The notes beneath the pieces were generated by a model. That model did no database searches. It was given only the letters and a program-made list of their open reading frames with translations, and was not told where the DNA came from. 64,000 nt of DNA from Sideroxyarcus sp. (GTDB lineage Bacteria > Pseudomonadota > Gammaproteobacteria > Burkholderiales > Gallionellaceae): positions 132,022-196,021 of the forward strand of contig DATGWO010000035.1 in assembly GCA_035299445.1 (NCBI GenBank), given 5' to 3'. Made by a program: the position numbers and the translations under genes. Below, one piece after another: positions 25,286-51,483 of this stretch. The stretch's first letter is position 1. Each line of letters begins with the position of its first letter.

Positions 25286-25301
25286 CTTACGCGTAGCTTA
25301 C
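25286..25301 (-). promoter_or_regulatory. CTTAC-N6-CTTAC direct repeat upstream of porin 1
   Basis: CTTAC at 25286 and 25297; same motif at 45405 and 51466. Confidence 0.55.
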
Positions 25302-25446
25302 ACCAATGCCCGCGCATCGCCCGCACATATGCCAAAACACCCAGTATTTTCAGGGTTTTCGAGCAACTCCATTAAAAGTATTGTGTTATTTTTGCCACAA
25401 TTGATTCAAATCAATATATTCAAATTTGCAGGCTGCTCGAACAAAA

Positions 25447-25474
25447 GAAACGGACTCCCGAAGGAGTCCGTTTC
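25447..25474 (-). terminator. Intrinsic terminator after porin 2
   Basis: gaaacggactcc-cgaa-ggagtccgtttc. Confidence 0.75.
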
Positions 25475-25521
25475 AAGTTCTGGATTTAAACCGTCGGGAA
25501 GCTAAATGCCTCCTTGGAAAA

Positions 25522-26592
25522 TCAGAACGAGTGGATCATGCCCAGACCGATCGCGGTTTGCTTCGAACCTGCAGCAGTACCGTAAGCGGTACCAGCGCTG
25601 AAGCCGTAAGTGCCGCCGGAACCGGCAACCGCCGCGTCGACTGCGTCGTTCTTGAGTGCGGTATAGGCTGCAAACACTTCAGTGCGCTTGGAGAAAGTGT
25701 AGCCATAACGCAACGACACTTGAGATGCACCGGTCTTCTCAACGCTGGTCTTGCCTGCCTTGACATAGCTCAGGCCGATGTTGCTTGTCCCCAGCTTGTA
25801 TTGGGCAGCCAGTTCGTTGTTGCTCTGGGTGTAGTTGGCTGTCAGCGAAGTGTTCACCTTGAGGCGTTCGATAGTCGCGCCGACCCAGAAGTCGCCCAGG
25901 GTATATTTACCGACCAGACGCGTTGCGGTGTCTTTAGTGGTCGCAACGGAAGCGTCATTGCGAATTTCGTAAGCCAGCGCTGCGTAGATACCTTCAGGCA
26001 TATTCAAAGTGGCGGCAAAGGAAGTCACCCACTTGTTGCCGGTTGCGGCCACAGGCGCTTCATCCGGGCTGTATGCCAGCGTCATGCCAACCGGGCCAAG
26101 GTCCGGGGAAACATAGGCCACCGCGTTGCTCTTGCGCGTATTGTAGTTCTTGCCGGCTGCACCGTTGGCACGGCCCATCAGATTGATCGCGCTGAACGAA
26201 GTGGTGTTGTCGAACAGTTCGATGGCGTTGCGGGAAGCCTTGTAAGGTGTATCCCAGTTGCCGTAGAGCACTTTGCCGAAGCCGCCTTCCAGACCGACGC
26301 CGGTGTTGCGTGTGCCGTTGCCCATGCCGTTGCCAGAGTTGCCATCGGCATCCACTTGAACTTCATACTGATAAAAAGCCTTCATGCCGTCGCCCAGATC
26401 TTCGCTGCCCTTGAGACCGAAACGGGATGCGTTGGTCTGAACGCGGTTAGCGCTGCCAGAGTTCTGCTTGTCGTTGGTGACATGCTCAAAATTCAGGAAT
26501 GCCTTACCGTAAAGGCTTACATTCGCATTGTCAGCGAACGCCGGTGCGGAAATTGCGGAAGCGATTGCCAACGCGATCAGTTTCTTTTGCAT
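25522..26592 (-). CDS. Gram-negative general porin (porin 2)
   Basis: Signal peptide, VSLYG, SRFGLKGSEDLG, C-terminal GMIHSF. Confidence 0.93.
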   Translation of the reverse strand: MQKKLIALAIASAISAPAFADNANVSLYGKAFLNFEHVTNDKQNSGSANRVQTNASRFGLKGSEDLGDGMKAFYQYEVQVDADGNSGNGMGNGTRNTGVGLEGGFGKVLYGNWDTPYKASRNAIELFDNTTSFSAINLMGRANGAAGKNYNTRKSNAVAYVSPDLGPVGMTLAYSPDEAPVAATGNKWVTSFAATLNMPEGIYAALAYEIRNDASVATTKDTATRLVGKYTLGDFWVGATIERLKVNTSLTANYTQSNNELAAQYKLGTSNIGLSYVKAGKTSVEKTGASQVSLRYGYTFSKRTEVFAAYTALKNDAVDAAVAGSGGTYGFSAGTAYGTAAGSKQTAIGLGMIHSF

Positions 26593-26824
26593 CTTTAAAG
26601 CTCCTTAAGTTTAGGTTGGTTGCGCCGCCCGGCAGGCGGGCGGCGGAATCAAATAAATTCCCTCGAGTGAGAATTCGGAGCGGATTCTGCTGCGGAAAAT
26701 CCAAAAAGCCGGCTTGTAACAAAAATTTCACGCAAACGTATCAATTGCGCGACAGCGGGTGCGCGCAGTCACAAAACTGCAATCAAATCGCGCTATGGGG
26801 AGAAAACAGATCAGGCGTGAAACA

Positions 26825-48919: not shown

Positions 48920-48952
48920 AAAAAACCCCGCCGAGGAGGAGGAGGCGGGGTT
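48920..48952 (-). terminator. Intrinsic terminator after actP
   Basis: Minus strand aaccccgcc-loop-ggcggggtttttt. Confidence 0.75.
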
Positions 48953-48975
48953 GGAAGGCGCAACTACGGACTGCT

Positions 48976-51060
48976 TTAATGTACCGATGCAGCCTCTGCA
49001 TTGATGCCGGTGTTCTGGCGCACGTAGAGTTCGTCCCACATCTCTTCGGCGCGCTTGTCACGGGTGAACAGCGAACCAAGGATGACCAGCAGGAAGCCGA
49101 GCGGGATGGAGATCAGTCCGGGGTTCTTCAACAGGAAGAACGGTTTCTCCAAGCCCATGATGCTGGTAGTCTGGCCGTCGAACTTGGCCAGGTCGGCTTC
49201 GGCTTTGGCCTTGGCCTTCTCGGTTGCGGCGATATCCTTCTTCACCTTGGCGAGGTCGGCTTCGATCGGGGCTTTCAGCTCAGGTGTGGCAGCCTTGGCG
49301 AGATCGGCTTCCAGTGCCGGCAGCTTGGCGTTCAGGGCGGCCAGCTTGTCGGCCGCGCCCGGCTTGGCAGGCTTCTCCGCAGTAGCCGGTTGTGCCGGCT
49401 TGGCCAGCACGCAACCGTCCAGCGCGAACAGTTCGCACATGAAGCTCGAACGCTCGACGGCGGGTTGTGCTTCCTTGGCCGGCACGGCCGGCTCGCCGTT
49501 CAACACTTTGTTGGCCGAGGCGATCACCGCCTTCGGATAGGTCATGTTGGGCGAGACCATCACCAGGCCGATGGCGGTCAACGTACCCACCACCATGCCG
49601 AGGAGGATGCCGGTGGTGTTGCACTTCTTCCAGTACAGCGTGAGGAACACGGCCGGCAGATTGGAAGAGGCAGCCACCGCGAACGCCAGCGCCACCAGGT
49701 GGGCGACGTTCTGGCCCTTGGCCAGGATACCGACAGTGATCGCGATGATGCCGACGATCACGGAAGCCACGCGCGCTGCCACCACTTGCTCCTTGGGAGT
49801 GGCATGGTCGCCGCGGATCACGCCGACGTAGATGTCGTGCGCCATCGCGGAAGCGGCTGCCAGCACCAGACCGGCCACCACCGCCACGATGGTGGCGAAG
49901 GCCACCGCCGCCACGAAGGCCAGCATGAAGTTGCCCAGCATCGAGTTCTCGCCGCCGCCGAGGAACTGCGCCAGCAGCGGACCGGCCATGTTGCCGCCGG
50001 CGTCCACTGAAGCGATCTTGTCCGGACCGACCAGCATCGCAGCGCCGGTGCCCAGGAACAGGGTCAGCACGTAGAAGCCGCCGATGATGCCCATCGCCCA
50101 GATCACGGAAGTGCGCGCAGCTTGGGCCGTCGGCACGGTAAAGAAGCGCATCAGGATGTGCGGCATGCCGGCGGTGCCCAGCACCAGTGCCAGACCCAGC
50201 GAGATCTGGTCGATCGGGTTCTTCAGGAACAGGCCCGGCTCAAGGAAGCGCTGGCCCAGTTCTTCCGGCGTCATCGTGGCAGCCTTGTCGCCCAGCAACT
50301 TGGCGACTTGTTTCTGCACGTCGGGATCGGCCACCACAGCTTGCAGGTACGACGGCAGGCTGAAGCCGTAAGGCGCCCACACCAGCATCACCAAGATGAT
50401 GGATGCCGCCACCAGCAGCACCGCCTTGGTGATCTGCACCCAGGTGGTTGCCTTCATGCCGCCGAACACCACGTAGGCCAGCATCAGGATGCCGACGCCG
50501 ATCACGGAGATCTCGTAGTCGATGCCGATCAGTGTCTTGATCAGCACGCCGCCGCCGACCATTTGCGCGGTCAGGTAGAAGGTGGACACGGTGATGGTGG
50601 ACAGCGCCGCCACGGTCTTGGTCTTCTTCGGGTCGTTGCGGAAGGCGAGGATGTCGCCCATGGTGTATTTGCCGATGTTGCGGCAAGGCTCGGCGATCAC
50701 CAGCAGCACGGTGATGTAAGCGACCAGCCAGCCCACCGAGTACATGAAGCCGTCGTAGCCGTACAGCGAGATCAGGCCCGCAATACCCAGGAAGGACGCG
50801 GCGGACAGATAGTCGCCCGCGATCGCCCAGCCGTTCTGGATGCCGCTGACCGAACGGCCCGCAGCATAGAACTCGGAAGTGGTATGGGTGGAGCGCGCGG
50901 CCCACCAGGTGATGGCCATGGTCACGGCGATGATCGCGCCGAACACGGCGAAGGTCATCCATTTGTATTCGTCGGCCACTGCGCCGCCCGCCGCGTAGGC
51001 TGCCGTGCAACCCACCAGGGCGATGGCCGCCAGGAAGAAACTGCTCACGTTCTTGCTCAT
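48976..51060 (-). CDS. actP: Cation/acetate symporter ActP with a long C-terminal loop insert
   Basis: FYAAGR, QNGWAIAGDYLSAASFLG, GGMKATTWVQ, GTAGMPHILMRFFTV, AASSNLP. Confidence 0.92.
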   Translation of the reverse strand: MSKNVSSFFLAAIALVGCTAAYAAGGAVADEYKWMTFAVFGAIIAVTMAITWWAARSTHTTSEFYAAGRSVSGIQNGWAIAGDYLSAASFLGIAGLISLYGYDGFMYSVGWLVAYITVLLVIAEPCRNIGKYTMGDILAFRNDPKKTKTVAALSTITVSTFYLTAQMVGGGVLIKTLIGIDYEISVIGVGILMLAYVVFGGMKATTWVQITKAVLLVAASIILVMLVWAPYGFSLPSYLQAVVADPDVQKQVAKLLGDKAATMTPEELGQRFLEPGLFLKNPIDQISLGLALVLGTAGMPHILMRFFTVPTAQAARTSVIWAMGIIGGFYVLTLFLGTGAAMLVGPDKIASVDAGGNMAGPLLAQFLGGGENSMLGNFMLAFVAAVAFATIVAVVAGLVLAAASAMAHDIYVGVIRGDHATPKEQVVAARVASVIVGIIAITVGILAKGQNVAHLVALAFAVAASSNLPAVFLTLYWKKCNTTGILLGMVVGTLTAIGLVMVSPNMTYPKAVIASANKVLNGEPAVPAKEAQPAVERSSFMCELFALDGCVLAKPAQPATAEKPAKPGAADKLAALNAKLPALEADLAKAATPELKAPIEADLAKVKKDIAATEKAKAKAEADLAKFDGQTTSIMGLEKPFFLLKNPGLISIPLGFLLVILGSLFTRDKRAEEMWDELYVRQNTGINAEAASVH

Positions 51061-51381
51061 TTAGATTCTCCCGCCGTTCACGTCATTGATGATCTCTTGC
51101 GCCATCGCGTCGAACTGGGCATTGGCCTTCTTCGAATAGACATAGGCGATGGTCCAGGCCACGACGAACTCGGACAAGGCGAACAGCAGGCCGACGTTGA
51201 TCACGCCCCACACCTTGGTCTTGAACAGATCCTGGTAATACGCTGCGCCTATGGGCAGCATGAAGTAATAGACGATGGAGAACACCATCAACCCCCACAG
51301 GAAGAACGTCTTCTTGCGGTGCAGCGCCTGGAACTTGGGATTGGCGTCGATCGCCGCCCAGTTGATATTCGGATTGGACAT
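51061..51381 (-). CDS. DUF485 (YjcH-like) ActP partner
   Basis: Two TMs; FDAMAQEI; directly upstream of actP. Confidence 0.9.
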   Translation of the reverse strand: MSNPNINWAAIDANPKFQALHRKKTFFLWGLMVFSIVYYFMLPIGAAYYQDLFKTKVWGVINVGLLFALSEFVVAWTIAYVYSKKANAQFDAMAQEIINDVNGGRI

Positions 51382-51451
51382 ACTCGCTCCCTTAAGATAC
51401 TCAACAAGTCGGGTATTGGATTCCCGGCTCTCTCGTACAACGGGACGCGAG

Positions 51452-51483
51452 ATTACGTGAAGATGCTTACGCTCAACTTACAG
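51452..51483 (-). promoter_or_regulatory. ATTAC-N9-CTTAC-N6-CTTAC repeat upstream of DUF485-actP
   Basis: Half-sites at 51452, 51466 and 51477; same spacing as the 45391 site. Confidence 0.6.

Follow-up and report, generated by a model that had tools for sequence, protein, structure and literature searches.

The 64,000-nucleotide stretch of a Sideroxyarcus sp. genome analyzed here (contig DATGWO010000035.1, positions 132,022 to 196,021; hereafter the window) carries three minus-strand transport units, each preceded by the same direct repeat, CTTAC-N6-CTTAC, and next to one of these repeats a two-component system is encoded on the opposite strand. The locus raises the question of what the repeat does, which protein reads it and to which signal that protein answers. 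A comparative genomics approach led us to conclude, with good though not full confidence, that the repeat acts as an operator in activator-dependent promoters, which are driven by the adjacent two-component pair and serve four units, among them the acetyl-CoA synthetase gene acs outside the window. These units appear to form a real, widely conserved acetate/monocarboxylate regulon, for which we infer binding, activation and signal from genomic sequence.

The pattern CTTACNNNNNNCTTAC (CTTAC-N6-CTTAC) was counted in the 64-kb window and in 100 dinucleotide shuffles. Exactly three matches were found, at 25286-25301, 45405-45420 and 51466-51481, all on the plus strand, against a chance level of 0.01; none of the 100 shuffles gave three. 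An earlier sequence-only reading of this DNA, which had placed the repeat upstream of the three minus-strand transport units and in one orientation, is borne out on both points. Two further claims of that reading stood in part. The flank AACTTACAGC, described as shared, is present at sites 2 and 3, but is not kept in relatives. A third half-site 14 bp away corresponds to CTTAC at site 2 and ATTAC at site 3, but is better read as a -10 hexamer: it falls out of register with the repeat, whose period is 11 bp, and a TAnnnT element stands exactly 10 bp from the repeat everywhere, including 52 sites of other genomes, so the half-site reading was dropped.

Read on the strand of the regulated genes, each site takes the form GTAAG-N6-GTAAG-N10-TAnnnT: GTAAG CTACGC GTAAG GATTGGGTGA TACGGT at site 1, GTAAG TTATAT GTAAG GTTGCGGCAG TAAGCT at site 2 and GTAAG TTGAGC GTAAG CATCTTCACG TAATCT at site 3. 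The promoter elements in the window are as follows.

25286..25301, minus strand: box 1, GTAAG-CTACGC-GTAAG, porin 1 promoter; retained ahead of the porin homologues of eight relatives within the genus
25270..25275, minus strand: -10 element TACGGT, separated from box 1 by 10 bp in the porin 1 promoter; predicted start near 25263
45405..45420, minus strand: box 2, GTAAG-TTATAT-GTAAG, promoter of the DUF4212-sodium:solute symporter (SSS) unit; ends 8 bp before the regulator ATG on the opposite strand
45389..45394, minus strand: -10 element TAAGCT of the DUF4212-SSS promoter; predicted start near 45382
51466..51481, minus strand: box 3, GTAAG-TTGAGC-GTAAG, promoter of DUF485-actP-nhaD; shares bases with the stop codon of the exonuclease gene upstream
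51450..51455, minus strand: -10 element TAATCT of the DUF485-actP promoter; predicted start near 51443

No recognizable -35 consensus was seen at the box promoters, the -35 position of site 1 being occupied by AGCTAC. All four sites of the genome consist of the box, a 10-bp spacer and TAnnnT without a -35 consensus, which is the class II activator-dependent (pho-box-like) layout. A direct repeat of 11-bp period located 10 bp upstream of the -10 element is characteristic of pho-box and PmrA-box promoters, which depend on an activator of the OmpR family. The repeat is predicted to replace the -35 element, as in the pho box. Mechanistically, the predicted promoters are conventional class II promoters for an OmpR-family activator, and their box differs from the PmrA/QseB box by one base. 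The boxes lie 118 bp (porin 1), 210 bp (DUF4212-SSS) and 85 bp (DUF485-actP) from the respective ATG codons, and the predicted 5' leaders are ~95, 187 and 62 nt long, with starts predicted ~7 nt past the -10 element.

The genome (2.69 Mb, 60.5% GC, 40 contigs, 99.96% complete) was then scanned as a whole. The bare 16-mer has five matches, of which two are outside the window; these lie upstream of an iscR-like gene (contig C11) and at the leuC-leuD junction at the leuD start (contig C14), and were taken as chance occurrences because they lack a -10 element and the latter overlaps the start codon. The extended motif GTMAG-N6-GTMAG-N10-TAnnnT occurs four times, compared with ~0.2 in mononucleotide shuffles, and all four matches are upstream of and co-oriented with porin 1, DUF4212-SSS, DUF485-actP and acs. 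Allowing one further mismatch adds a single weaker match, at C14:19174, which overlaps an ATG and is likely also due to chance. The acs site reads GTAAG ACTCAA GTCAG GTAGGCTTGC TATAGT and is located 243 bp upstream of the acetyl-CoA synthetase gene, in the same orientation, within the 3' end of a gene for an HD-GYP-domain protein (L033 1996-3210, contig C22). The sequence-only reading had proposed a regulon of three operons and a genome-wide scan that was expected to reach acs. The three operons of the window hold, and the expected match was found and is kept across the genus, which brings the regulon to four units. No box was detected upstream of the Rnf/PFOR/ppsA cluster located between porin 1 and the symporter, even with relaxed matching.

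Conservation in orthologous promoters, which had been suggested as a check, was observed for all four boxes, which are kept across the genus while their spacers diverge. The region between the regulator and DUF4212 retains the box and the -10 element in 18 of 20 same-genus relatives, and the box alone in one more (L004). In these genomes the box is 5-8 bp from the regulator ATG, its first half-site is GTAAG or GTCAG, and the -10 element of the DUF4212 promoter is TAAGTT, TAACTT, TAATTT or TATGGT. The DUF485-actP box is kept in all seven relatives with an intact locus; two of these seven (L035, L036) have tandem boxes in the actP promoter, with spacings of 11-10-11 across the four half-sites, an arrangement suggestive of two dimers binding cooperatively in some species. 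In the eight relatives that keep the porin box, the -10 element is TACGTT, TACGGT or TAGGTT. When sites were collected with one mismatch allowed anywhere, the resulting set of 54 (the 52 from other genomes included) contained a single kind of substitution, A to C at half-site position 3, and the base preceding GTAAG was T, A or C, never G.

Two of the four promoters illustrate promoter evolution. In 12 other porin homologues the same -10 element and leader are found with the box replaced by a canonical -35 element, TTGAAA or TTGATA, at a distance of 17-18 bp, which points to one promoter switched between constitutive and activator-dependent forms. The acs box is kept in 16 same-genus genomes; given its position within the HD-GYP gene, this could reflect protein constraint alone. 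At two loci (L070 and L073), however, the HD-GYP gene is gone, yet its last ~250 nt, including the box, remain upstream of acs with the reading frame broken, which argues against that explanation. The remnant begins 20-35 nt before the box, the replacement in L070 being a gene for a PQ-loop-like membrane protein, and is apparently retained as the promoter and leader of acs.

Throughout the genus, the porin homologues (L046-L050, L052, L054, L056, L059, L060, L062, L065) also have a strongly conserved leader of ~110 nt, GGGTGATACCTTGCGCCTCGGACTAGG...TTTCGCTAGGGATTGGCCCGATACGAAA...GAGGAGAT-ATG, of which the leader of porin 1 in the window (25169-25285) is a diverged version. It may be a structured leader or a target of a small RNA (sRNA); it has no match in Rfam, and the Rfam scan of 24000-54500 matched no family.

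The genes controlled by the three promoters of the window, and the two-component pair encoded between them, were annotated by profile searches.

24041..25168, minus strand: porin 1, trimeric, Porin_4/Omp32-type (Pfam Porin_4, E 8e-34; best solved relative Omp32, 2FGR/1E54)
44932-45195, minus strand: DUF4212 small subunit (Pfam DUF4212; TIGR03647, 106.3 bits, cut-off 26.05)
42845-44932, minus strand: VC_2705-family SSS (Pfam SSF; TIGR03648, 765.7 bits, cut-off 320.75)
51061-51381, minus strand: DUF485 protein (profile matches)
48976-51060, minus strand: ActP/MctC-like cation:monocarboxylate symporter, scoring highest to the MctC monocarboxylate model
47551-48822, minus strand: NhaD Na+/H+ antiporter, directly downstream of actP (profile matches)
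46102..47544, plus strand: sensor histidine kinase with periplasmic 2CSK_N, HAMP, HisKA and HATPase_c domains; best curated match QseC, 220 bits, under the cut-off
45428..46105, plus strand: OmpR/PhoB-family response regulator of the TctD/PmrA/QseB subfamily, assigned by domains, curated models and structural relatives; the proposed box-binding activator

The DUF4212 and SSS genes adjoin with a one-base overlap, and the symporter belongs to the VC_2705 family that comes with a small subunit. DUF485, actP and nhaD (47551-51381) are inferred to be one operon from their spacing and common strand.

Which protein reads the box? The adjacent regulator (45428-46105) is most likely the binder, and four independent lines, i.e., family, operator, elimination and co-occurrence, make it the best candidate. 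As to family, both Response_reg (E 2e-28) and Trans_reg_C (E 1.5e-21) score above their cut-offs. Among the curated models, TctD scores best with 243.5 bits, followed by PmrA (230) and QseB (197), all under the equivalog cut-offs (337 bits for TctD, NF012023). The sequence-only reading, which had assigned the repeat to the adjacent TctD-like regulator, thus named the best candidate, with "TctD-like" holding at the subfamily level only. The nearest named relatives of the regulator are encoded in metagenome-assembled genomes (MAGs) labelled "Gallionella sp." (83%) and "Sulfuricella sp." (77%). Of the proteins with a solved structure, PmrA/BasR of Klebsiella (4S04/4S05/8JO2) is its best relative, and a DNA-bound structure is also available. 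As to the operator, the site to which QseB and PmrA bind in the -35 region is CTTAA-N6-CTTAA (PMC5053249); the half-site of the window, CTTAC, equals theirs at 4 of 5 bases in a sequence comparison and the geometry is identical. As to elimination, the genome encodes only two OmpR-type DNA-binding domains, and the other belongs to PhoB (contig C27, 365 bits vs a cut-off of 296).

Co-occurrence was analyzed in 301 genomes of the order that are >=90% complete; with a regulator homologue defined by E<=1e-68, 139 of them are positive and 162 negative. The exact box with the -10 element occurs 112 times in this set, compared with ~15 occurrences of a control pattern. Regulator-positive genomes hold 104 of these boxes, and the remaining eight, in the negatives, correspond to the control rate. 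In 34 genomes of many families, 35 boxes lie <=300 bp from the start of a regulator homologue (median ~25 bp), and all 35 are divergently oriented. One genome that seemed to have boxes without a regulator (G017) was set aside, since its contig starts with the last 19 residues of the regulator owing to an assembly break.

To define the content of the regulon across the order, 100 box loci were sorted by the first co-oriented gene.

acs: 25 of 100
actP, with or without DUF485: 19 of 100
D-Ala-D-Ala carboxypeptidase: 11 of 100
outer-membrane efflux protein: 6 of 100
DUF4212-SSS: 5 of 100
KgtP-like transporter of the major facilitator superfamily (MFS): 4 of 100
MltB-like transglycosylase: 3 of 100
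ExbB/TolQ: 3 of 100
paralogous regulator-kinase pair: 3 of 100
citrate synthase: 2 of 100
TctB: 2 of 100, in two genomes of another family
porin: 1 of 100
no confident assignment: ~16 of 100

The box-linked acetate genes are drawn from at least 12 families. The sole exact box is upstream of acs in Paraburkholderia fungorum (10.4 Mb), Paraburkholderia sp. B3 and Undibacterium sp. WLX3042, while Janthinobacterium sp. K2E3 and Pseudoduganella flava each contain two, one for acs and one for actP. A Sulfuricella MAG has its box between the regulator gene and DUF485-actP, which is divergent from it; an Azonexus MAG has one upstream of DUF485-actP and another abutting the regulator; and in Parasulfuritortus the box precedes a DUF294-exonuclease pair, a common companion of acs and actP. 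A second, independent linkage of the regulator to the DUF4212 transporter is seen in Oxalobacteraceae and Cupriavidus, where the regulator-kinase pair is followed by DUF4212-SSS on the same strand. No GTAAG box was found beside the regulator in these operons; two Oxalobacteraceae genomes with such an operon, Undibacterium sp. WLX3042 and Janthinobacterium sp. K2E3, have the box at acs. Of the carboxylate-uptake regulon proposed by the sequence-only reading, acs, actP and the symporters are supported, with a center in acetate/monocarboxylates and not in tricarboxylates, and the inclusion of porin 1 is supported by the porin link kept in the eight relatives.

In the proposed mechanism, the kinase (46102-47544) would sense a short-chain carboxylate in the periplasm, most likely acetate, and would phosphorylate the adjacent OmpR-family regulator (45428-46105). 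A regulator dimer would occupy the repeat, which spans positions of about -38 to -23 with its 11-bp period, and recruit RNA polymerase, turning on the Omp32-type porin, the DUF4212/VC_2705 symporter, DUF485-ActP-NhaD and acetyl-CoA synthetase. Omp32 is anion-selective, and the Omp32-like porin would pass small organic anions through the outer membrane; two sodium-coupled monocarboxylate symporters would carry out the import, NhaD would expel the co-transported sodium and Acs would turn acetate into acetyl-CoA. That nhaD directly follows actP in the same orientation is consistent with the recycling of sodium taken up together with carboxylates.

Other explanations of the same data differ in the sign of regulation, in the binder or in the signal. 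The regulator could be a repressor that occludes RNA polymerase by binding over the -35 region until the signal frees it, as the overlap of the box with the -35 position would allow and as the presence of the box in the leader of the regulator itself, where a bound protein could do nothing but impede transcription, would suggest. We consider this improbable: none of the promoters has a recognizable -35 element, so they are expected to be weak without an activator; the orthologous porin promoters exchange the box for a strong -35 element, TTGAAA, as if the box stood in for it; and PhoB and PmrA are generally known to activate from the same geometry. It is slightly less probable still that some other protein binds the box and that its adjacency to the regulator gene is incidental. 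The pairing of regulator and box rests on sequence, and some genomes with regulator homologues lack an exact box, but the divergent boxes abutting the regulator start in 34 genomes of many families, the fall of box frequency to the control level in regulator-negative genomes, PhoB being the only other OmpR-type protein of the genome, and a motif that, but for a single base, equals the box used by the closest characterized relatives of the regulator all speak for the adjacent regulator.

The nature of the signal is less firmly constrained. That it is another carboxylate (pyruvate, lactate or propionate) or a general carbon/energy cue, with the acetate genes as part of the output, is unlikely, though a serious contender: DUF4212-SSS homologues matter for the use of lactate and D-alanine, the ActP-like protein scores highest on a model of the monocarboxylate transporter MctC, and related boxes in other families precede genes for citrate synthase, TctB and KgtP-like MFS proteins. 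Against it, acs is the commonest target in the order, followed by actP, and is the sole exact match in several large genomes.

Several observations weigh against an acetate regulon driven by the adjacent pair. In fitness data, DUF4212 transporters are associated with lactate and D-alanine instead of acetate (10.1101/072470), and the inducer could for this reason be broader than acetate. The acs site deviates by one base (GTCAG) and lies inside coding DNA. At the regulator locus, one relative (L011) is without the box, and in another (L004) the box and the -10 element are separated by an insertion. The association of box and regulator (Fisher test, odds ratio 22.6, p ~1e-22) was calculated without phylogenetic correction, the regulator-positive set mixes paralogues, and the exact box was not found in three Comamonadaceae genomes with ~60%-identical regulators. 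Finally, the same box precedes genes for D-Ala-D-Ala carboxypeptidases, MltB-like, efflux and MFS proteins in other families, so that what the box denotes is a family of PmrA/TctD-like regulators rather than acetate itself. Within this family of box-using regulators, the acetate branch is, judging from the genomes compared, the most widespread, and it is the branch present in this genome.

The carboxypeptidase group is mostly adjacent to the regulator and is concentrated in few families. At loci L186, L225, L244-L252, L255, L257, L278 and L281, all of other families, the GTAAG box separates the gene of a 58-65%-identical regulator from one for a D-Ala-D-Ala carboxypeptidase, and in one family of this group the box is also upstream of MltB-like lytic transglycosylases. 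The carboxypeptidase-linked loci appear to represent a sister two-component system, in which this operator serves a cell-wall regulon, and sister paralogues seem to use the box again at genes for cell-wall enzymes and efflux pumps. Two further observations were made at related loci. In Cupriavidus, Ralstonia and Massilia-type genomes (L099, L117, L133, L134, L155, L158, L164), a perfect LexA-type SOS box, TACTGTATAAAAAAACAGTA, is found upstream of the regulator-kinase-DUF4212-SSS operon and presumably belongs to the divergent neighbor. In a Propionivibrio MAG (L167 3560-3960), the regulator-adjacent box faces ~380 nt without an open reading frame of >=150 aa, ending at a terminator-like hairpin; this stretch could be a target of the system in the form of a small RNA or a small protein.

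The promoter of the regulator-kinase operon itself has an unusual arrangement with respect to box 2.

45312..45339, plus strand: sigma-70 promoter TTGACA-16-TAAAAT of the regulator-kinase operon, facing the box 2 promoter; 11 of 12 consensus matches

This promoter is ~90 nt upstream of the regulator ATG and is kept as TTGGACA...TAGAAT in 19 relatives. The two promoters stand face to face with an overlap of ~37 nt, and the predicted regulator transcript crosses the -10 element and the box of the divergent promoter, which places box 2 within the leader of the regulator. Synthesis of the regulator may be damped when the box is occupied or when the divergent DUF4212 promoter fires, which would amount to negative feedback. 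No Shine-Dalgarno sequence is visible at the start codon of the regulator in any relative.

With respect to characterized systems, the pair is closest to PmrA(BasR)/PmrB and QseB/QseC in regulator subfamily, in the kinase, whose best curated match is QseC and which has the 2CSK_N sensor domain, and in the geometry of the operator, with 5-bp half-sites, direct repeat, 11-bp period and location in the -35 region (PMC5053249). It differs from them in the last base of the half-site (C instead of A) and in the equivalog cut-offs, which are not reached here. PmrA and QseB control lipopolysaccharide modification or virulence in response to iron, Al3+ or catecholamines, whereas the genes found here serve acetate uptake and activation, with a carboxylate as the presumed signal. 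TctD/TctE of Salmonella and Pseudomonas (opdH and tctCBA) share the logic of two-component control of a porin and a carboxylate transporter encoded beside the regulator (PMC4513871), but the neighbors here are DUF4212-SSS and NhaD-ActP-DUF485 (sodium:solute symporters) instead of tctCBA, the porin is of the Omp32/PorB type and not of the OprD type, and the regulon includes acs. Promoters with a PhoB pho box share the 11-bp-period repeat 10 bp upstream of the -10 element in place of the -35 element, but have the half-site CTGTCAT, not GTAAG, and PhoB is encoded by the separate gene noted above.

The closest system by output is CrbS/CrbR (MxtR/ErdR) of Vibrio and Pseudomonas, a two-component system activating acs and actP in the acetate switch (PMC5715377, PMC5436829, PMC8402216). 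The resemblance is one of analogy, not homology: CrbR is LuxR-type, whereas the present regulator is OmpR-type with Trans_reg_C; CrbS is an SLC5-STAC hybrid kinase, whereas the present kinase has a periplasmic 2CSK_N domain and no SSF domain; and the DNA motifs differ as well. No description of an OmpR-type acetate regulator in Betaproteobacteria was found in the full-text literature, a search whose coverage excludes most subscription journals and regulon databases; a Cupriavidus paper on a PHB (polyhydroxybutyrate) two-component system and a Burkholderia BiofilmReg paper, considered as possible prior descriptions, concern other systems. The chances seem about even that the pair is the long-missing acetate-switch regulator of Betaproteobacteria, in which a periplasm-sensing TctE/QseC-type kinase and a PmrA-like regulator would drive acs and actP through GTAAG-N6-GTAAG, non-homologous to the gammaproteobacterial CrbS/R and with sister paralogues reusing the box for cell-wall enzymes and efflux pumps.

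The analysis defines the operator precisely, predicts four promoters, names a candidate sensor-regulator pair and lists target genes in at least 12 families. It also provides two natural examples of promoter evolution, namely, the exchange of a -35 element and an activator box at an orthologous porin promoter, and an acs promoter that outlasted the decayed HD-GYP gene that carried it. Two promoter features are unusual, the face-to-face arrangement with the regulator's own promoter and the embedding of the acs promoter in the 3' end of the HD-GYP gene. The box ranges over iron oxidizers, Paraburkholderia, Janthinobacterium and relatives of polyphosphate accumulators. Uptake and activation of acetate matter for mixotrophy in iron and sulfur oxidizers, for carbon storage in wastewater polyphosphate accumulators and for acetate-based bioproduction in Cupriavidus and Paraburkholderia. 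The known regulator of acs and actP, CrbS/R, is gammaproteobacterial, and the pair described here is a candidate for its betaproteobacterial counterpart.

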